A stretch of DNA of 64,000 nucleotides from Candidatus Staskawiczbacteria bacterium (GCA_903831095.1 CAIKWD010000026.1:29290-93289), one strand, 5' to 3'; numbered from the stretch's first letter, positions 479 to 48,836 are shown. The notes: generated from the sequence alone by a model not told the origin. Translations and numbers: made by a program.

Positions 479-931
479 CTATTTTACTTTAGATAAATAT
501 TTGTTTTGTAAATTTTCCATTTCCTCTGCTTCTTTTTCTGTTTTCTCGTCCCGGTTTTGCCGAGGATCCTCGACATAGTCGGGATGGTCATATCCGCATA
601 AGTGCAAAATCCCATGGACAAAAACTTTTATCATTTCACTTTTTACGGTCACCTTATATTTCTTGGCGTTTTCCTTAACTACATCCGGGCAAATAATAAT
701 CTCTCCCAAATAACCTTTTTCTGCACTGTCCTTTAACTCAAAAGAAAGCACATCTGTCGGTTTGTCTTTTCCGCGGAATTTTTTATTAAGCTTTTTTATT
801 TCTGCTTTTCCAACAAAAGCCAGAGACAACGTTTCTGTTACTCTATTTTCGCCTTTTAATACAATTTTTGCAACTGTGGAAAAGTTTTTTTTATCCACAC
901 TATATTTTGTAAGGTTGTTTATCTCTATCAT
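479..931 (-). CDS. ybeY: Endoribonuclease YbeY (rRNA maturation factor)
   Basis: 150 aa with the H-x-x-x-H-x-x-x-x-x-H zinc motif HGILHLCGYDH. It carries a GC-rich palindromic insert at 549-585. Confidence 0.9.
   Translation of the reverse strand: MIEINNLTKYSVDKKNFSTVAKIVLKGENRVTETLSLAFVGKAEIKKLNKKFRGKDKPTDVLSFELKDSAEKGYLGEIIICPDVVKENAKKYKVTVKSEMIKVFVHGILHLCGYDHPDYVEDPRQNRDEKTEKEAEEMENLQNKYLSKVK
549..585. repeat. GC-rich palindromic mini-element, family 2, copy C (in-frame in ybeY; encodes DYVEDPRQNRDE)
   Basis: tcccggttttgccgaggatcctcgacatagtcggga shares the core CGAGGATCCTCGAC and the TCCCG/CGGGA flanks with the copy at 47064-47105. It corresponds to a roughly 13-aa insertion relative to E. 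coli YbeY. Confidence 0.75.
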
Positions 932-12106: not shown

Positions 12107-12190
12107 GCCGAGGTGATGAAATTGGCAAACATGCCAGACTCAAAATCTGGTGCCCTTAAAAGCTTGAGGGTTCAAGTCCCTCCCTCGGCA
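12107..12190 (+). tRNA. tRNA-Leu (anticodon CAA), class II with a long variable arm
   Basis: Acceptor stem GCCGAGG/CCTCGGC. Anticodon stem-loop CCAGA-CTCAAAA-TCTGG gives anticodon CAA. Long variable arm, T-arm GGTTCAAGTCC, discriminator A; CCA is not encoded. Confidence 0.85.
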
Positions 12191-12220: not shown

Positions 12221-12245
12221 AACCCCGCTCAGCGGGGCTTTTATT
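12221..12245. terminator. Bidirectional intrinsic terminator CCCCGC-TCA-GCGGGG shared by tRNA-Leu (+) and the minus-strand operon
   Basis: A 6-bp GC stem 12223-12237 with T-runs on both strands, preceded by a second small hairpin CTGTAC-TCA-GTACAG. It lies between the convergent tRNA and the MBL gene. Confidence 0.7.
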
Positions 12246-16632: not shown

Positions 16633-18255
16633 TTATTTTTTTGCTTGTCTCCTAGCTAAAAGAGCGCAAATTCTTTTACAAATTATTACTGAAACTTCCT
16701 CCTTGCCTAAAAATTCTTTCACTGTATTTTCAAACTCCGGCATATTTATAGGATCTAAAACTTTTAAATTCTTTACACCACAAGCTTTTACAATTTCTTC
16801 AATACTTAATTCTGGTGCATCCTTTCCCATTAAATTTTTACCCATTCCAGGATTTGGTTGGTGCCCAGTCATAGCTGTTATTCGGTTGTCCAAAATAATT
16901 ACCAAAGGATTGGATTTATTATAAACAGAATTTATAAGCGGAGCTATTCCCGAATGGAAAAATGTTCCGTCTCCCATTATGGTAATAACTTTCTGACTGG
17001 TAGATTTCTTAACTCCATGTGAAATACCCAATCCCGCTCCCATGTCAAAAAGATAGTCATACAAGTTATGAGGTGGTAAAGCTCCAATCATATTACAACC
17101 TATATCACCTCCAAAAACTGTTCCTTCAGGAGCAATCCTTTTTAAAACTGGAAAAACATGCCAATAAGGGCAACCTTCGCAAAGCCTGGCAGTTCTTCTA
17201 GGAAGATTAATTTGTTTTACCTTAAAGGTTGTAATTTTCTTTCCAATTATTTTTGCTGTAGCAGACAAAATTTTATCTGTATTCAGTTCTCCAATCTCTG
17301 GTAAAATGTCTTTTCCAAAAATCTTAACCTTAATTCCCATGTCGTTTGCAATAGCCTTTATTTCCTTCTCCAAATATGAATTAAGTTCTTCGGCAACTAA
17401 AATATTTTTTTTGCCTTTCATAAACTCAGCAATTTTCTTCCTTGGCAAAGGATAAAAAAATCCAAGCCTCAAAACTGGAAGCTGTATGCCCATTTCTTCA
17501 AAGGCCTCTAAAGTATGCATATAAGAAATTCCTGAAGTAATAACACCAAGTTTTGAGGACGCAGATTTATTTATTATAAAATTTACCTTTGATTTTTCAG
17601 CAAAAATTTCAATTTTCTTTAATTTTTCCAAAAGTTCTCCTTTCATTTCCATTACTCTTGGAGGCATAGTGGAAAATTGATGAGGATTTCTAATAAATTC
17701 TCCTTTTACTTCACTTTTAACCCTTTCTTCAAAATTAACAATTGCCCTTTGATGAGCCACGCGCGTAGTCACTCTTAAAATTACAGGAATATTGAATTTC
17801 TCTGATATTTCAAAACCCAGCTTTGTAAAATCATAACATTCTTGTGGACTAGAAGGTTCTAGAAAAGGTATATGAGACAAATAAGCATAACCCCTTGAAT
17901 CCTGTTCTGATTGAGCAGAACTCCAGCATGAAGGGTCATCTCCCACAAATATTACCATTGGAGCTTTTGTTCCAGTATAAGCCAAGGGTAACAAGCTATC
18001 TGAGCATACATTTATGCCAAAACTCTTCATATTTACCAAGGATTTTAAGCCTGAAAAACTGGCTCCTATGGCAGCTTCCAATGCAACCTTCTCATTTGTT
18101 GAATACTCGGCATAAACTCCGTTTGCTTCGGCAATTTTGCCAAACTCATCTCCAATTTCAGCTGATGGACATCCAGGATACCCAGAAACGAAAGAAACAC
18201 CTGCTGCTAAAGCTCCCCTAACTATTGCCTCGTTCCCCAATAAAACTTTTTTCAT
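16633..18255 (-). CDS. iorA: Indolepyruvate:ferredoxin oxidoreductase subunit alpha (IorA-like; TPP and Fe-S binding)
   Basis: 540 aa. A TPP-binding region (GDGTFFHSG), a Cys cluster CEGCPYW and a C-terminal C-rich tail. Immediately upstream of iorB. Confidence 0.75.
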   Translation of the reverse strand: MKKVLLGNEAIVRGALAAGVSFVSGYPGCPSAEIGDEFGKIAEANGVYAEYSTNEKVALEAAIGASFSGLKSLVNMKSFGINVCSDSLLPLAYTGTKAPMVIFVGDDPSCWSSAQSEQDSRGYAYLSHIPFLEPSSPQECYDFTKLGFEISEKFNIPVILRVTTRVAHQRAIVNFEERVKSEVKGEFIRNPHQFSTMPPRVMEMKGELLEKLKKIEIFAEKSKVNFIINKSASSKLGVITSGISYMHTLEAFEEMGIQLPVLRLGFFYPLPRKKIAEFMKGKKNILVAEELNSYLEKEIKAIANDMGIKVKIFGKDILPEIGELNTDKILSATAKIIGKKITTFKVKQINLPRRTARLCEGCPYWHVFPVLKRIAPEGTVFGGDIGCNMIGALPPHNLYDYLFDMGAGLGISHGVKKSTSQKVITIMGDGTFFHSGIAPLINSVYNKSNPLVIILDNRITAMTGHQPNPGMGKNLMGKDAPELSIEEIVKACGVKNLKVLDPINMPEFENTVKEFLGKEEVSVIICKRICALLARRQAKK

Positions 18256-20735
18256 TAAATTACTATGTTAATTAATTTGTTTGGTACGAAAACTATTTTT
18301 TTAACTTCAACTTCACCTATCAAAGCTTTTATTTTTTCAGACTTCATAACTATTTTTTCAGCTTCCTTTTGAGTCAGCCCAGCCTTTGCATTTATTTTAT
18401 CTCTAACTTTTCCATTTATCTGCACAATTAAAAGTACTTCTTGATCTTCAATTAATTTCTCGTCATATTTTGGCCACTTCTGCAAACTGCACATTTCCTT
18501 CAGTCCAGCGTTGGCCCAAAGTTCTTCAGCTAAATGCGGAGCAAAAGGAGAAAGAATAATTAAAAAGTTTGCCAAGTCCTTTTTATCCAAACCTGTGGCA
18601 GAAACTTGTCCCGCGGAGCGGGATCCCGTTACACGGGACCACTCATTTACAAATTCCATCATCGCACTTACAGAAGTATTAAATTTCATCAATTCAATAT
18701 CTTCTGCAACTTTCTTTACTGTCTTATGCAAAATCTTTTTCAATCCTTCTTCAGTTTTTACTGCAGCAGTTTTTTGCGATGCTAAATTATAAATCTTTTC
18801 CACAAATCTCCTGCATCCAACAACTCCTTTTGTATCCCAAGGAATCATTTGTTCAAATGGACCCATAAACATTTCATAAATTCTCAACGTGTCGGCTCCA
18901 TATTCTTTTACAATTACGTCTGGGTTAATAACATTCCCCTTAGACTTTGACATTTTAATTCCCCCTTCACCCAAAACCATTCCATGTGAGGTCCTCTTTT
19001 TATAGGGCTCAGATCCAATAGACAAAGGTACAGCTTTGATATCCCACAAAAATTTAAAAATAAATCTGGAATATAAAAGATGCAAAGTTGTATGTTCCAT
19101 TCCACCATTATACCAATCAACTGGAAGCCAATATTTGGCTAGAGATTCATCAACTAACTTTTTACTATTTTTAGGATCTATATATCTTAAAAAATACCAG
19201 TTAGAACCTGCCCAATTTGGCATAGTGTCGGTTTCCCTTTGAGCTGGACCTCCACATTTAGGACATTCTGTTTCTACCCAATTTTTAATCAAAGACAAAG
19301 GAGATTCTCCCGTATCTGTTGGCTTATATTTTTTTACATTGGGTAATTTAACCGGTAAATCTTTTTCAAAAACTGACTGCCATCCACACTTCTTACAAAA
19401 AATCATTGGTATTGGCTCACCCCAATAATGCTGTCTAGAAAAAACCCAATCTCTCAGTTTATAGCTTATTTTTGGTTGGGCAAATCCTTTTGAAGAAAGC
19501 CAAGCAATTATCAAGGGTCTCGCCTGAGCAGATTTCATACCGTCAAATTGAACAGAATTATAAAGAATTCCATCTCCTTCAAAACACTCCTCCAAATTCT
19601 TAACTTTCTGAGTAAGCAATTCATCGTCCGGTTTTATGGAAGTTCTTAATGGAATGCCATATTTCTTTGCCATTTTAAAATCTCTCTTGTCATGGGCATC
19701 AGCAAATACTGCTCCGGTTCCATATTGCTCTAAAACAAAGTCAGCAGTCCAAACAGGCATTTCCTCATTTGTTGCAGGATTCCTTACCAAAATACCCTTT
19801 AGCTGAACACCAGTTACATCTTTATCTTGATTGGTCCTATCCATATCAGAAACATTTTTAGCTTCCTCTCGATACTTTAAAACTTCATCAATGTTTTCAA
19901 TTCTGCTTTTATGAGTGTCTATAAAACTACTTCCAGGAGCTACAATTAAAAAAGTCCCAGAAAATATAGTATCTATTCTGGTTGTAAAAACATCTATAGA
20001 TTCTTCAACTCCTTCAATTGGAAACTTAACTAGGGCTCCATGAGATTCTCCAATCCAGTCCTTCTGCTGTGTTTTAATTTTTTCCAAATAATCTACATTT
20101 TCCAAATCTCTAATTAGCCTGTCAGCATAATTTGTAATTTTTATCATCCACTGCTCTTTTTCTCTTTTTTCAACTTTTGTCCCACATCTTTCGCAATTTC
20201 CATTTACCACTTCTTCGTTAGCCAAACCAATCAAACATGACGGACACCAATTTATATTAATTTTACTTTTATATGCCAACCCATTTTTAAACAACTGAAT
20301 AAAAATCCACTGAGTCCATTTATAATACTTTGGATCTGTAGTATCAATTTCTCTTGACCAGTCAAAAGACCACCCCATTCTCTGCATCTGTTCTTTAAAA
20401 TATTCAACATTCTTTTTTGTGACAACAGAAGGATGGACTCCTTTCTTAATTGCATAGTTTTCCGTAGGCAAACCAAAAGCATCCCAACCCATTGGATACA
20501 AAACATTAAACCCCTGCATTCTCTTCTTGCGAGCTATTATATCTAAGGCTGTATAACTCCTACAGTGTCCCACATGAAGCCCATCTCCAGAAGGGTATGG
20601 AAACTCCACCATGGCATAGAATTTCTTCTTCTTAGAGCCGTTTTTAGCCTTAAAAACGCTCGAATTAAACCACTTTTCCTGCCATTTTGCCTCTATTTTT
20701 TTAGGATTGTATTTTACCATATAGTTATCCTCCAT
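18255..20735 (-). CDS. leuS: Leucyl-tRNA synthetase
   Basis: 826 aa with the HIGH-like motif PYPSGDGLHVGH and KMSKS (KMSKSKGN). It contains the GC-rich palindromic element at 18608-18640. Confidence 0.9.
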   Translation of the reverse strand: MEDNYMVKYNPKKIEAKWQEKWFNSSVFKAKNGSKKKKFYAMVEFPYPSGDGLHVGHCRSYTALDIIARKKRMQGFNVLYPMGWDAFGLPTENYAIKKGVHPSVVTKKNVEYFKEQMQRMGWSFDWSREIDTTDPKYYKWTQWIFIQLFKNGLAYKSKININWCPSCLIGLANEEVVNGNCERCGTKVEKREKEQWMIKITNYADRLIRDLENVDYLEKIKTQQKDWIGESHGALVKFPIEGVEESIDVFTTRIDTIFSGTFLIVAPGSSFIDTHKSRIENIDEVLKYREEAKNVSDMDRTNQDKDVTGVQLKGILVRNPATNEEMPVWTADFVLEQYGTGAVFADAHDKRDFKMAKKYGIPLRTSIKPDDELLTQKVKNLEECFEGDGILYNSVQFDGMKSAQARPLIIAWLSSKGFAQPKISYKLRDWVFSRQHYWGEPIPMIFCKKCGWQSVFEKDLPVKLPNVKKYKPTDTGESPLSLIKNWVETECPKCGGPAQRETDTMPNWAGSNWYFLRYIDPKNSKKLVDESLAKYWLPVDWYNGGMEHTTLHLLYSRFIFKFLWDIKAVPLSIGSEPYKKRTSHGMVLGEGGIKMSKSKGNVINPDVIVKEYGADTLRIYEMFMGPFEQMIPWDTKGVVGCRRFVEKIYNLASQKTAAVKTEEGLKKILHKTVKKVAEDIELMKFNTSVSAMMEFVNEWSRVTGSRSAGQVSATGLDKKDLANFLIILSPFAPHLAEELWANAGLKEMCSLQKWPKYDEKLIEDQEVLLIVQINGKVRDKINAKAGLTQKEAEKIVMKSEKIKALIGEVEVKKIVFVPNKLINIVI
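18608..18640. repeat. GC-rich palindromic mini-element, family 1, copy A (in-frame in leuS)
   Basis: tgtcccgcggagcgggatcccgttacacgggac. The first 23 nt are identical to the copy at 37075-37108. It encodes SRVTGSRSAGQ. Confidence 0.8.
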
Positions 20736-36506: not shown

Positions 36507-37211
36507 CTAATTTATTACTGTTCCTATAAAAGGCTTATTATTTAAAAAGTCTTCCAGCCTTTCCAAGTTTTTACCATTGATCATAGCCACTTTCAATTTT
36601 AAACTGGCAGCTAGTTTGGAAGCCTTAGGATCAAACGGCATTGAAAGCCCAGGTGACCACTTGTCTCCAACAATTCTCAAAAAGCTTTTCCAATCAATTT
36701 CTTTAAATGGTTTGGCATCTGGAAATTCATTGGGATTTTTGTCGTATACATAATCAACATTTGTAAGATTGATTATAGTTTTTATATTATTATTCTTTGC
36801 CATTAAAACAGCATCATAATCTGTTGACCACCCTGGCTTCCACCCTGCCCCAACAATAATATCCTTAGTAGTTTTTACTTTTACATTTGGATCTGTGACA
36901 ACTTTTGGAAAACAATTTCCAGCAAACATTTGTTTTATAACTTCGGCATTCAACCTGGTAATGTTAATTCCCATCCAATCCCTATCTTGGCTTTTTGCGC
37001 CAAACTCCAAAAGCGCCTTTTGATAGTTTCTGGCAACTTTTCCTCCCCCAACTAAAATAAAAAACCTATATTTCTGTCCCGCGGAGCGGGATCCCGTATA
37101 GCGGGACAAAGAATATTTGAAAGTCTTTAAAAAACCTATGTCTATCTCATTTGGAGCCACTAACGACCCGCCCAGAGATATTATTATTGTTTCCTTTATG
37201 TTTTTAGCCAT
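36507..37211 (-). CDS. pyrH: Amino-acid kinase family protein, UMP kinase-like (archaeal-type PyrH)
   Basis: 234 aa with SLGGS and LVGGG motifs. It contains the GC-rich palindromic element at 37075-37108. Confidence 0.6.
   Translation of the reverse strand: MAKNIKETIIISLGGSLVAPNEIDIGFLKTFKYSLSRYTGSRSAGQKYRFFILVGGGKVARNYQKALLEFGAKSQDRDWMGINITRLNAEVIKQMFAGNCFPKVVTDPNVKVKTTKDIIVGAGWKPGWSTDYDAVLMAKNNNIKTIINLTNVDYVYDKNPNEFPDAKPFKEIDWKSFLRIVGDKWSPGLSMPFDPKASKLAASLKLKVAMINGKNLERLEDFLNNKPFIGTVIN
37075..37108. repeat. GC-rich palindromic mini-element, family 1, copy B (in-frame in the pyrH-like gene)
   Basis: tgtcccgcggagcgggatcccgtatagcgggaca. It contains a perfect 7-bp inverted repeat GTCCCGC/GCGGGAC flanking the palindrome CGGGATCCCG, and encodes SRYTGSRSAGQ. 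Confidence 0.8.
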
Positions 37212-38497: not shown

Positions 38498-38852
38498 GGG
38501 GATGATTGTTTCGATGGATTGTTCTTTAAAGTAAGGCAAGTTGAGCTTTCTTGGGGCTCATTAATCTCCTGAGAAAAAACATAATTGCTAATTTATTTAA
38601 CTTTAATAAGCAACCAGCTTTAGCTTTTGCTTAAGCTGCATCCTTACCGATGATTCCTAATGGGCGGATCAAGGGTGTTATATTATTAGGATAGGCATCT
38701 TCATTCTCCGGGGAAATGCCAAAACTAAGGAGATAAAGCATTAAAAATTTTGCTAATTTTTTATTTAATGCTCGAAAAACAAAATCAGCTAAACTTGTAG
38801 AATTGCTTTTGAGAATTTTTCAGACGCGGTTTCAATACCGCCATCTCCACCA
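38498..38852 (+). ncRNA. ssrA: tmRNA (ssrA), about 355 nt
   Basis: 5' GGGGAUGAUUGUUUCGAUGG and 3' GACGCGGUUUCAAUACCGCCAUCUCCACCA (T-arm, acceptor, CCA). Acceptor pairing GGGGAUG/CAUCUCC. A candidate tag ORF reads ...GCU AAU UUA UUU AAC UUU AAU AAG CAA CCA GCU UUA GCU UUU GCU UAA (ANLFNFNKQPALAFA). It lies immediately downstream of smpB. Confidence 0.85.
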
Positions 38853-39577: not shown

Positions 39578-39687
39578 ATTTAAACCGCGACGAATAAAGA
39601 GTTCAGCGTAAATTGGGCCTAGATGTATTAGATTATAATCAGCCCAACTTCCGAAGCAATCTTGTTCGCCTCGCTCACAAGACCGTG
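39578..39687 (+). promoter_or_regulatory. Structured rpmI-rplT spacer / rplT leader with hairpin AATTGGGC(39611-39618)/GCCCAA(39642-39647), including the GTG start
   Basis: A 107-nt spacer unusual for this operon. It is about 95% identical over roughly 90 nt to the inverted copy at 47126-47240. Confidence 0.6.
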
Positions 39688-40032
39688 TCACGAGTAAAAA
39701 GATCAGTACAAGCCCGCAAGCACAGGAAAAACATTTTAAAGCATGCTAAGGGTTTTAGACAAGCAAGAAATTCTAAATTTAAAGCCGCTAAAGATGCCTT
39801 GAGGCATGCTTGGTCTTATGCATTTAGAGACAGGAGAGTGAAAAAGAGAACCTTCAGAAACCTCTGGAACTTACAAATTAATGCTTTGGCCAGGGAAAAC
39901 GGCATAACATACAGCAGGTTCATTGAAGGATTAAAAAAGCACAAGATAGAATTGGACAGAAAAGTTTTATCAGAATTGGCAAACACTTATCCAGAAGTAT
40001 TTATAAAAATAGTGGAAGAAGTAAAAAAATAA
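39685..40032 (+). CDS. rplT: 50S ribosomal protein L20
   Basis: (V)SRVKRSVQARKHRKNILKHAKGFRQ matches the L20 N-terminus from the GTG at 39685. The ORF-track TTG start at 39613 adds a non-homologous extension and is rejected. Confidence 0.85.
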   Translation: MSRVKRSVQARKHRKNILKHAKGFRQARNSKFKAAKDALRHAWSYAFRDRRVKKRTFRNLWNLQINALARENGITYSRFIEGLKKHKIELDRKVLSELANTYPEVFIKIVEEVKK

Positions 40033-42939: not shown

Positions 42940-43004
42940 ATTTTCTAATAAAATTAATTACCAATTTATTCATATATTATAGATACAGGAGAAACAAAAG
43001 TAAA

Positions 43005-43075
43005 CCCCGTTAGAAAATATTTCTAACGGGGTAAACAAAAACAGCCCTTTTAAAAGCTGTTCATTGAAGCTTTTA
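43005..43075 (-). terminator. Tandem intrinsic terminators downstream of the HD gene
   Basis: A 12-bp stem CCCCGTTAGAAA/TTTCTAACGGGG and a second hairpin ACAGC.../...GCTGT, each followed by T-runs on the minus strand. Confidence 0.55.
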
Positions 43076-46655: not shown

Positions 46656-47129
46656 TTAAGCTTTGTAGACTTTATATCCTTCGTGAACTTTCTTTTCAAT
46701 TTTCATACCTACAGAATCTCCTTTTTTAGCTGAAGCAACTTCCACATGTTCAATTTGCATTGATTTTACTTTCTGCTCAAAATCTGTATCTTGCCCGCCA
46801 ACTACCCTAATTATTTCCCCGTCTTTCAGCGGAGCTTCCAACTCAATAACTGCTACCTCAATATTTGAAAAATAATGAGTTATTCGGCCAATTATTTTAC
46901 CCTCTGGCTCTACCTTGGGCATTATAGATTTTGACGCAATCTTTTTAACTGCTTTTTTGACTGCTTTTTTAGTAGCCTTTTTTACAGTTTTTTTAACTGC
47001 CTTCTTAGTTGTTTTTTTGACTGCCTTTTTTATAATTTTTTTCTTCTTAGAAACTACTTTCTTTCCCGATTTCTTCGAGGATCCTCGACTGCTTTGCAGT
47101 CGGGACTTTTTTGCTTTTGCTTTGGACAC
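46656..47129 (-). CDS. Fusion of a histone H1-like lysine-rich N-terminus (KKAVKK repeats) with an EF-Tu domain-2-like beta-barrel C-terminal domain; GTG start
   Basis: 157 aa. Tandem KKAVKKT repeats precede KIIGRITHYFSNIEVAVIELEAPLKDGEIIRVVG...SMQIEHVEVASAKKGDSVGMKI. The start codon and leader are copied from rplT. Confidence 0.55.
   Translation of the reverse strand: MSKAKAKKSRLQSSRGSSKKSGKKVVSKKKKIIKKAVKKTTKKAVKKTVKKATKKAVKKAVKKIASKSIMPKVEPEGKIIGRITHYFSNIEVAVIELEAPLKDGEIIRVVGGQDTDFEQKVKSMQIEHVEVASAKKGDSVGMKIEKKVHEGYKVYKA
46930..47040. repeat. Tandem approximately 12-21-nt DNA repeats encoding the KKAVKK lysine-rich repeats
   Basis: Repeated units such as tttttgactgcctttttt are visible in the sequence. 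Confidence 0.6.
47064..47105. repeat. GC-rich palindromic mini-element, family 2, copy D (in-frame in the H1-like gene; encodes SRLQSSRGSSKKSG)
   Basis: tcccgatttcttcgaggatcctcgactgctttgcagtcggga. It has a 14-nt perfect palindrome TCGAGGATCCTCGA flanked by TCCCGA/TCGGGA. Confidence 0.75.
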
Positions 47130-47240
47130 GGTCTTGTGAGCGAGGCGAACAAGATTGCTTCGGAAATTGGGCTAATTATAATCTTATACATCTAGGCCCA
47201 ATTTACGCGGAAATACTTTGTTCTGTCGCGGTTATTTACT
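47126..47240 (-). promoter_or_regulatory. Inverted duplicate of the rplT leader (rpmI-rplT spacer, hairpin and GTG start), fused upstream of the H1-like/EndoQ operon
   Basis: The reverse complement of 47126-47238 aligns with 39583-39690. Two 22-nt and 31-nt blocks are identical, and the substitutions cluster in the hairpin loop. The stem AAATTGGGC(47164-47172)/GCCCAATTT(47196-47204) is a perfect 9 bp. Confidence 0.7.
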
Positions 47241-48804: not shown

Positions 48805-48836
48805 AAAATCCCGCAGTGGGCGGGATCTTTTAATTT
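48805..48836 (-). terminator. Intrinsic terminator ATCCCGC-AGTG-GGCGGGAT with T-run, downstream of the NIF3 gene
   Basis: A 7-8-bp GC stem followed by a T-run on the minus strand. Confidence 0.65.

Follow-up and report, generated by a model that had tools for sequence, protein, structure and literature searches.

The DNA analyzed here is a stretch of 64,000 nucleotides (CAIKWD010000026.1:29290-93289, called the window below) with genes that resemble those of Candidatus Staskawiczbacteria, Parcubacteria/Patescibacteria (names as given by the source records). The G+C content of this 64-kb window is 34%. Close to its start lies ybeY, and within the reading frame of ybeY is a GC-rich double hairpin centered on GGATCC, which is the subject of this report. 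The double hairpin is an insertion. It is constrained in nucleotides and structure, it recurs across genes, reading frames and phyla, and its length is filtered within open reading frames (ORFs). We conclude that it is very probably a non-autonomous mobile double-hairpin DNA element; the copy in ybeY is referred to as copy 1.

A double hairpin in four genes of one window

The host gene of copy 1 was identified as ybeY by several comparisons. Every listed homologue of its product carries the precomputed Pfam family PF02130, the PDB YbeY structures 1tvi, 1oz9, 7y7o, 1xax and 1xm5 match at E values of 3e-23 to 6e-16, and the protein has the UPF0054/YbeY fold with its zinc-binding H-x3-H-x5-H motif. 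The AlphaFold model has a mean predicted local distance difference test (pLDDT) score of 84.7 and a confident core. Copy 1 is translated on the minus strand as PDYVEDPRQNRD, 12 residues that stand immediately after HGILHLCGYDH. These residues (117-128) are coil in the model, with block-mean pLDDT values of 53-71 versus about 90 elsewhere, and are predicted to form a disordered loop, with the zinc-binding HxxxHxxxxxH motif before it and the C-terminal helix after it. An earlier reading of the stretch, made from the letters of the DNA alone (the sequence-only reading), had described an in-frame palindromic element of about 13 residues at 549-585. Its placement in ybeY and its frame were right, but the 36-nt string occupies 549-584 and encodes 12 residues (PDYVEDPRQNRD).

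On the plus strand, copy 1 reads TCCCGG-TTTTG-CCGAGGA and then TCCTCGAC-ATA-GTCGGGA. The string CGAGGATCCTCG is present exactly two times in the window, at 561-572 and 47076-47087. When two mismatches or fewer were allowed, shuffled windows had a mean of 0.22 matches, and none of 100 shuffles reached two. The longer pattern TCCCG-N-CGAGGATCCTCGAC-N-TCGGGA matches the window only at 549-584 and 47064-47105, and shuffles give no match at all. A recurrence at the second position, in a different gene and frame, had already been claimed by the sequence-only reading and was confirmed here. This second copy (copy 2) reads TCCCGA-TTTCT-TCGAGGA followed by TCCTCGACTGC-TTT-GCAGTCGGGA, and it is translated on the minus strand as SRLQSSRGSSKKSG, in a frame other than that of copy 1, near the 5' end of the ORF at 46656..47129. 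Its minimum-energy fold is a pair of tandem hairpins on both strands (z-scores of -3.8 to -5.0). None of the 119 homologues of the host protein contains the copy-2 segment, so that, among 120, copy 2 is found in this lineage alone.

Two further doublets belong to a related form, family 1, which is a bulge-less double hairpin of the type TCCCG..CGGGATCCCG..CGGGA; copies 1 and 2 belong to family 2. The family-1 element in leuS is located in a length-variable loop of the anticodon-binding domain. In pyrH, the window's UMP kinase reads SL[SRYTGSRSAG]QKY versus SLQKY in most relatives. These four doublets, two of each family, are the only ones in the window and hold four of its seven GGATCC sites. 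All four lie inside genes, and in each the palindrome is in frame in an unrelated, translated ORF (Table 1).

Table 1. Double-hairpin elements and their host genes in the window
Feature	Position	Strand	Description
ybeY, host of copy 1	479..931	minus	150 aa; zinc motif HGILHLCGYDH = residues 106-116
Family-2 double-hairpin element, copy 1	549..584	none	36 nt; sequence tcccggttttgccgaggatcctcgacatagtcggga
leuS, host of family-1 element	18255..20735	minus	element encodes SRVTGSRSAG in frame
Family-1 element in leuS	18609..18638	none	30 nt; TCCCGC-GGA-GCGGGA, then TCCCG-TTACA-CGGGA
pyrH, host of family-1 element	36507..37211	minus	element lies exactly between TTG (Leu) and CAG (Gln)
Family-1 element in pyrH	37077..37106	none	30 nt; encodes SRYTGSRSAG in frame
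Gene hosting copy 2	46656..47129	minus	157 aa; Lys-rich N-terminal tail; conserved C-terminal barrel of about 85 aa, PF03144-like
Family-2 double-hairpin element, copy 2	47064..47105	none	42 nt

Most relatives of YbeY lack the insert

A set of 120 YbeY relatives was collected, of which 117 could be classified and 3 remained unclassified. Fourteen of the 117 are filled and 103 are empty, the empty ones running directly from DH into EKS. In an alignment of 38 relatives, 12 sequences have a block of 12 columns that the other 26 lack. Among those without the block is P0003, which is 93% identical to the window's YbeY protein. Its DNA (L129) comes from the same BUCK21-1 sample series and equals the window ybeY minus exactly 36 nt. 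The empty allele reads GGATACGACC directly joined to ACGAAAAATC, and the filled allele of the window reads GGATATGACC, the insert (ATCCCGAC...CCGGG) and ACGAGAAAAC. The claim that the segment is an insertion relative to orthologues is therefore borne out by both the 103 empty relatives and the exact empty allele. Since the boundary can be moved by one A at most (an ambiguity of no more than 1 nt), there is no target-site duplication at ybeY, a feature that the sequence-only reading had proposed to look for. Copy 1 would have entered between the A and the C of the His-116 codon, GAC CA^C GAG, without such a duplication, and would then have been read through as a 12-residue loop.

The filled sequence is identical in all eight contigs that encode this exact YbeY protein, and these contigs come from several assemblies. 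The filled allele is therefore not an assembly accident. On a neighbor-joining tree, filled alleles occupy at least seven places with empty sisters beside each; this tree, built from about 135 aa, has weak resolution. No partial remnants of the element were seen among the 103 empty alleles, and a metagenome scan for YbeY relatives gave no further filled alleles among the matches listed.

The neighboring gene ftsA was compared by nearest-neighbor bootstrap. The element variants partly follow their host in this comparison, with the window grouping with L249 and L131 with L252, and empty alleles such as L186 are interleaved among the filled ones. L129 and the window form a mosaic over 440-1200, in which about 350 nt 5' of the site are near-identical while the upstream gene and the 3' side have strongly diverged. 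This pattern suggests recombination, with a tract that stops at the element site. Because of this mosaic, homologous exchange between strains can be said to add to the patchy filled state.

In the same YbeY alignment (A1), other loops contain further short, GC-rich-looking in-frame inserts: PASNASRSDAGW, LGRSTGEA, GGPAFGG, GPFGVAECMD and KSAQRILTGPSQ. Among the UMP kinases, P0244-P0352 have a second insert site with NPSTSLRxR, GPSAGSGF and DPTSPRLRG. These loop inserts of YbeY and UMP kinase are probably additional element families.

Nucleotides and pairing are conserved, and residues vary

Seven filled ybeY orthologues were compared at the nucleotide level. The feet of their hairpins are identical. 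The inserts have a G+C content of 0.61-0.67 and a G+C content at third codon positions (GC3) of 0.58-0.75, versus a GC3 of 0.19-0.32 in the host genes. The encoded amino acids vary (Y/E/K, V/I and N/G/R/S) while the GC-rich nucleotides stay. Where stems change, they do so in a compensatory way: GAC/GTC becomes GAT/ATC, which gives V to I, and CGG/CCG becomes CGCC/GGCG, which gives N to G, R or S. The sequence-only reading had named a peptide conserved over divergent nucleotides as the finding that would speak against its view, and the reverse was observed: the nucleotides are kept, the residues change and the stems compensate. The element is constrained at the level of nucleotides and structure and not at the level of the peptide. 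It probably has no function for YbeY itself.

Two pairing models were compared over the filled orthologues. With tandem hairpins, 97.6% of the cells are paired and there are two compensatory pairs, a result equaled by 7 of 500 shuffles. The nested single hairpin has no compensatory pairs. Folding copy 1 by itself gave a minimum-energy structure that is nested for the sense strand (as RNA and as DNA) and for the plus strand as RNA; for the plus strand as DNA it is a pair of tandem hairpins. The comparison of orthologous sequences supports two tandem hairpins, not one nested palindrome, as the unit of the family. The GC-rich, GGATCC-centered element that had been described thus stands, but covariation across the family makes it an inverted doublet of bulged hairpins and not a simple nested palindrome.

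Distribution and architecture of the family

One genome per species was scanned with the pattern TCCCG-N(3-14)-CGAGGATCCTCG-N(3-20)-CGGGA, giving at least 120 loci. The family extends beyond the window. The counts of arms, flanks and lengths given below are from the matches listed among these loci, with 212 arms corresponding to 106 copies in low-GC genomes. The hosts among the same matches are many lineages of Patescibacteria (records labeled Saccharibacteria, Paceibacterota, Buchanan-, Lipton-, Magasanik-, Sungii-, Wildermuth-, Yanofsky- and Staskawiczbacteria), Bacteroidota (Bacteroidales, Rikenellaceae, Saprospiraceae and Cyclobacteriaceae) and Poribacteria, WOR-3, Cloacimonadia and some metagenome-assembled genomes labeled Gammaproteobacteria. 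As a control, the presence of hairpin arms was compared between genomes. They are missing in 9 of 11 matches in high-GC genomes versus 3 of 86 low-GC loci, and by this measure the matches in high-GC genomes look like chance. Other genomes share the family, which is present in several phyla and in coding, non-coding and tRNA-like contexts.

The doublet TCCCG-stem-loop-CGAGGA, TCCTCG-stem-loop-CGGGA consists of two abutting inverted copies of a bulged hairpin, with no spacer. Reverse-complementing the first module type gives the second hairpin. The feet meet at GGATCC, which is their joint, and folding of the single strand brings both ends of the element side by side. In each module the foot, TCCCG...CGAGGA, is conserved together with one extrahelical base, and the terminal stem-loop is variable. 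The conserved skeleton is 22 nt long: TCC-CG/CG-A-GGA, then TCC-T-CG/CG-GGA. A module measures 15-30 nt with one bulged base and a whole element 30-56 nt, and the conserved ends are (G)TCCCG and CGGGA(C), with a G preceding TCCCG in 140 of 212 flanks.

The variable parts also keep their pairing. A perfect stem down to a loop of 6 nt or fewer was found in 183 of 212 variable arms, and the mean extra stem is 3.3 bp versus 0.4 bp in shuffles, with 75 distinct stems. Loops of 3 nt are present in 132 of 212 arms; among the loop sequences, AAA/TTT was counted 47 times and GAA/TTC 25 times. Modules almost always occur as doublets (205 of 212). A search for single modules, as possible left or right ends of an autonomous element, gave only degenerate doublets. 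Circularly permuted or mixed-foot forms were not found in 1.76 Mb of locus DNA; a hybrid exists at pyrH of L254. The empty sites that could be resolved are CCA^CGA for ybeY and TTG^CAG for pyrH, the latter from relatives compared as proteins.

Rfam was searched with the whole window at the gathering threshold, which returned only a tmRNA and one tRNA, and with eight element-bearing loci at E<=1, where no family lies over the elements. Viral contigs gave one family-2 match and 35 matches to the family-1 pattern, mostly chance in high-GC contigs; with matches so few or mostly due to chance, a link to phages was dropped.

Several copies have distinctive surroundings. In the Bacteroidales loci L069, L014, L012, L023 and L047 (alignment A3), a longer conserved repeat of about 120 nt is built around the element, ..CGAGYTCGCGAG-element-CGGnnnGTGATTGTGGCTGGTGGGAGCGAGCAAT.. 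In the Bacteroidota loci L065 (4180-4350), L085, L037 (1520-1940) and L101, elements lie within tRNA-like sequences, in the D-loop. The units in L065 are repeated in tandem and measure about 103 nt; each joins the 5' part of a tRNA to an element. L037 has the 5' half of a tRNA with an element, then a GIY-YIG gene and, after that, an intact tRNA-Pro. The module TCCCGAC..GTCGGGA forms the apparent anticodon arm of tRNA-like sequences in L077 (47-254; three tandem units, loop CTTTAGG) and L115 (176-194; one unit, loop CTTTTAG). GIY-YIG nuclease genes are also present near ybeY in L131 and L252, but tblastn found such genes at only 4 of about 250 loci, and an association with them was dropped.

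Length and reading frame inside genes

Besides the four copies of the window, at least 28 copies lie inside ORFs elsewhere. Among the matches listed, 28 copies have at least 40 open codons on both sides, and the element length is divisible by 3 in 26 of them. The remaining 82 listed copies have lengths modulo 3 of 0, 1 and 2 in 43, 15 and 24 cases. Because 26 of 28 copies deep within ORFs are multiples of 3 while the others are spread over all three classes, the length of the element is not intrinsic and is filtered by selection in ORFs. The conserved parts (TCCCG, CGAGGATCCTCG, CGGGA and their reverse complements) have no stop codon in any of the six frames, and copies that are a multiple of 3 therefore survive within genes. 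Copies of other lengths are found outside ORFs or at gene ends.

Elements are on either strand relative to genes, and all three reading frames are used, giving PD..EDPR..RD, SR..RGSS..SGQ and VP..SRILD..GT. An all-against-all clustering of ORFs from 8-kb element loci revealed one shared insertion site in Mur ligases that is used in two frames, with SR..RGSS..SGQ in L009 and L102 and PD..EDPR..RD in L046. At L046, L074, L066, L104, L009, L102, L049 and L043, tandem 7-nt repeats stand on both sides of the element, and the flanking heptamers differ by locus (CAAATTC, GAAAATT and GGATTTC are examples). Since the element at the Mur-ligase site is in different frames in different species, the copy number of the heptamer may reset the reading frame at element sites.

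Modules at the pyrH site and other features of the window

At the pyrH site, TTG^CAR, three orthologues have different combinations of two hairpin modules. The window has its family-1 doublet; L254 has the window's first hairpin and a family-2 second hairpin; and L253 combines a long, family-2-like first hairpin with the second hairpin of L254. The modules therefore change independently, with a breakpoint at GGA^TCC, and point mutation is an unlikely source of the differences.

The host of copy 2 has further repeats. A tandem repeat with a 12-nt period at 46937-47044 encodes the (A/T)VKK repeats of its Lys-rich tail, and the tail varies greatly in length among homologues, which have 88-157 aa in total. 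An inverted duplicate of 98 nt that is 92% identical (39602-39699 and 47115-47212) copies the region just upstream of rplT, including its GTG TCC start. The 157-aa gene has its 5' leader and first codons from this duplicate, which ends 9 nt from copy 2 and may be a duplicated promoter or L20 operator.

Terminator-like GC-rich hairpins stand at gene ends at 1540-1560, 12223-12237, 43004-43032 and 48808-48826. The last of these, ATCCCGCAGTGGGCGGGAT, has a TCCCG/CGGGA foot as in the elements. Routine features of the window are the tmRNA at 38498-38852 and a tRNA at 12107-12190.

How the elements may move, and alternative explanations

That the double hairpin is mobile and that a transposase specific for hairpins in single-stranded DNA (ssDNA) moves it seem likely to us when taken together. 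Such an enzyme would account for the seamless mode of insertion, the architecture as a doublet, loops of 3 nt and the way modules are exchanged at GGA^TCC. It would also fit the conserved foot with its extrahelical base, the strand-symmetric conservation and the DNA-like triloops. By analogy, we tentatively suggest that the elements move as folded ssDNA by an HUH/Y1 transposase acting in trans, similar to IS200 or to the transposases associated with repetitive extragenic palindromic (REP) sequences (RAYTs). The products expected of HUH/Y1 enzymes, of the IS200/IS605 and RAYT type, are taken from established knowledge of these enzymes. A candidate gene is present in a related genome, L253, where a 241-aa Y1_Tnp/RAYT-like gene (45-770) with the HUH motif NHIHLL lies directly upstream of pyrH. 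Its product scores 30.5 bits against Pfam Y1_Tnp (cutoff 23), and its best NCBIfam match is REP_Tyr_transpos. An in-frame hairpin at 243-263 of L253, TTGGAAGGCCCGTCCTTCCAA, encodes LEGPSFQ, and an inverted copy stands just downstream at 790-811.

Several observations weigh against this picture. The NCBIfam score of the L253 protein, 34.5 bits, is below the cutoff of 80, and the hairpin that the gene carries in its coding sequence, with one more just downstream, is a different one (TTGGAAGG..CCTTCCAA). No transposase is present in the 64-kb window, and ORF clustering of the 8-kb element loci showed no transposase or other enzyme recurring near copies. REPs and their doublets, REPINs, are described in the literature as extragenic, GTAG/CGTC-tagged and mostly vertically inherited, unlike the present family, which is often intragenic, untagged and cross-phylum. 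The 7-nt direct repeats or arrays that flank some copies in other genomes of the candidate phyla radiation (CPR) would be easier to reconcile with a transposase that makes duplications than with an HUH enzyme. Neither an excision product nor a transposition event has been observed. In addition, a single old insertion together with homologous exchange could explain the scattered filled state of YbeY, given that the L129/window mosaic changes identity at the element site and that element variants track neighboring ftsA.

This last point can be developed into a full alternative, in which an old and now immobile insertion in ybeY (and pyrH) became patchy through strain recombination and loss, with hairpins kept by chance or gene conversion. 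The tract of about 350 nt shared by L129 and the window, the pairing of the window with L249 and of L131 with L252, and the weak resolution of a tree built on about 135 aa are all compatible with it. However, copy 2 is unique to its lineage among 120 homologues, and among the matches listed the family has 75 stem variants and occupies unrelated genes of many phyla. With a host GC3 of about 0.25, a dead insert should lose its GC-rich third positions and its pairing, but both are kept, with compensatory changes, and the module swaps at pyrH need more than point mutation. We consider this history improbable. Slightly less credible is movement by a structure-specific site-specific recombinase, not HUH, comparable to the integron integrase acting on folded attC. 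Folded attC sites have a conserved foot, an extrahelical base and a variable terminal stem-loop. The module of the element shares this architecture, and both the swaps with a breakpoint at GGA^TCC and the insertion without duplication would suit such an enzyme. But the R''/R' core (RYYYAAC / GTTRRRY) is absent from the elements, no cassette or integrase gene was found near copies, and the elements are single and not arrayed.

The other alternatives concern what the sequence is for, or whether it is real. That the element is kept for a role in RNA, as an mRNA stabilizer, processing site, pause site or terminator, and not as selfish DNA, is favored by stable RNA folds (z-scores of -2.5 to -4.4), hairpins conserved in orthologues and the T runs after some intergenic copies. 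Against this, most orthologues of every host gene do without the element, copies occur on either strand and in all frames, no Rfam family matches, and strand-symmetric conserved sequence with mostly 3-nt loops suits DNA hairpins better. T runs within 10 nt were found at 11 of 58 non-ORF copies among the matches listed versus a background of 15%; with no enrichment beside copies, the reading as intrinsic terminators was dropped, and we hold the wider RNA explanation to be quite unlikely. Selection of the 12 residues as a functional peptide of YbeY has in its favor the similarity of PD-x-(V/I)-EDPRQ-x-RD across the 14 filled orthologues and the position of the insert, which borders the catalytic zinc site. 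This explanation is very unlikely, as the same DNA is read in other frames elsewhere, GC-rich codons avoided by the host stay fixed at synonymous sites, several residues change so that base pairs are kept, disorder is predicted for the loop and 103 of 117 classifiable relatives lack the insert. Lastly, the family-1 core CGGGATCCCG is identical to a classical synthetic BamHI linker, which raises the question of linker contamination, palindrome misassembly or chance. Shuffles never reproduce the pattern, independent assemblies of several projects share the identical filled allele, conserved genes hold the copies in frame, and stems covary over more than 100 loci. The probability of an artefact is close to nil.

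Implications for small genomes

CPR genomes are tiny and streamlined, and mobile elements in essential genes are not expected in them. Here, four essential or conserved genes within 64 kb carry translated selfish DNA, and orthologues show more types of insert at the same loops. Such elements would offer a concrete mechanism for many of the short lineage-specific insertions in CPR proteins. They also provide a clean system for the movement of minimal hairpin DNA, with a 22-nt skeleton, an extrahelical base, seamless sites, and empty and filled alleles in one sample series. Inserts of this kind can mislead orthology alignments, phylogenies and structure prediction for metagenome-assembled genomes. 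A bolder proposal, which we think somewhat doubtful, is a previously undescribed cross-phylum class of minimal mobile DNA, in which abutting inverted doublets of bulged hairpins, folded with their ends together, are inserted and excised seamlessly by a hairpin-specific ssDNA enzyme at G^C sites such as TTG^CAA, including those in essential genes, and exchange modules at GGA^TCC. If true, it would be a general source of new protein loops in CPR bacteria, Bacteroidota, Poribacteria and WOR-3.

Relation to known palindromic and mobile repeats

Rickettsia palindromic elements (RPEs) are about 100-150 bp long, form roughly ten families and are restricted to Rickettsia in the summary given by PMC10969869 (Ogata et al. 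2000, 2002). The elements described here are like RPEs in being palindromic selfish DNA that lies in frame in unrelated genes and is translated as an extra peptide compatible with the fold. Both have non-coding copies as well, and both occur in an AT-rich reduced genome. Our elements differ in that they are 30-56 nt long, three to four times shorter, and are not confined to one genus, with hosts in Patescibacteria, Bacteroidota and others. They are also abutting inverted doublets with a 22-nt skeleton across phyla and are read in all three frames, and RPEs are set apart from them by description. They would extend the phenomenon of coding palindromes from Rickettsia to free-living and episymbiotic lineages.

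The architecture recalls REPs, short sequences that bear the tag GTAG or CGTC in the account of PMC3733652, and REPINs, which PMC3337134 describes as two REPs in inverted orientation. The likeness lies in the short imperfect palindrome as a module, the inverted pair as the unit, the lack of obvious coding capacity and the RAYT-like Y1 gene in a related genome (L253). Unlike REPINs, which are lineage-specific and vertical, our elements have no GTAG/CGTC tag, have a spacer of zero, are often intragenic and cross phyla. In genomic style, they resemble the GC clusters of mitochondria, such as yeast GC42 with its duplication of the AG target dinucleotide (PMC4478555), and the double-hairpin elements (DHEs) of Allomyces (Paquin et al. 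2000, as cited in PMC4478555). These too are GC-rich elements that form hairpins, measure about 40 nt and lie dispersed through a genome very rich in AT, with substitutions in loops, structure kept, and mobility deduced from presence and absence with no known enzyme. They differ in being organellar, unrelated in sequence and mostly intergenic, whereas our elements are bacterial, cross phyla and show no duplication at ybeY or pyrH.

[quoted passage not shown] Correia, ERIC, BOX and Nezha share with our elements the form of a small non-autonomous repeat with terminal inverted symmetry. Our elements are much shorter and have no duplication at ybeY or pyrH, where the codons TTG and CAG abut the element exactly. 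According to PMC10969869, intragenic bacterial MITEs can create in-frame fusions. Integron attC sites share the extrahelical base, but the elements have no R''/R' core, and no integrase was found nearby. Neither Rfam nor the open-access literature searched, including that on Patescibacteria, contained a description of such elements. The closest known systems are RPEs in behavior, REPINs in architecture and mitochondrial GC clusters in genomic style. The element belongs to a kind already known, that of coding palindromes and REPIN-like doublets, and its phylogenetic spread is unexpectedly wide.

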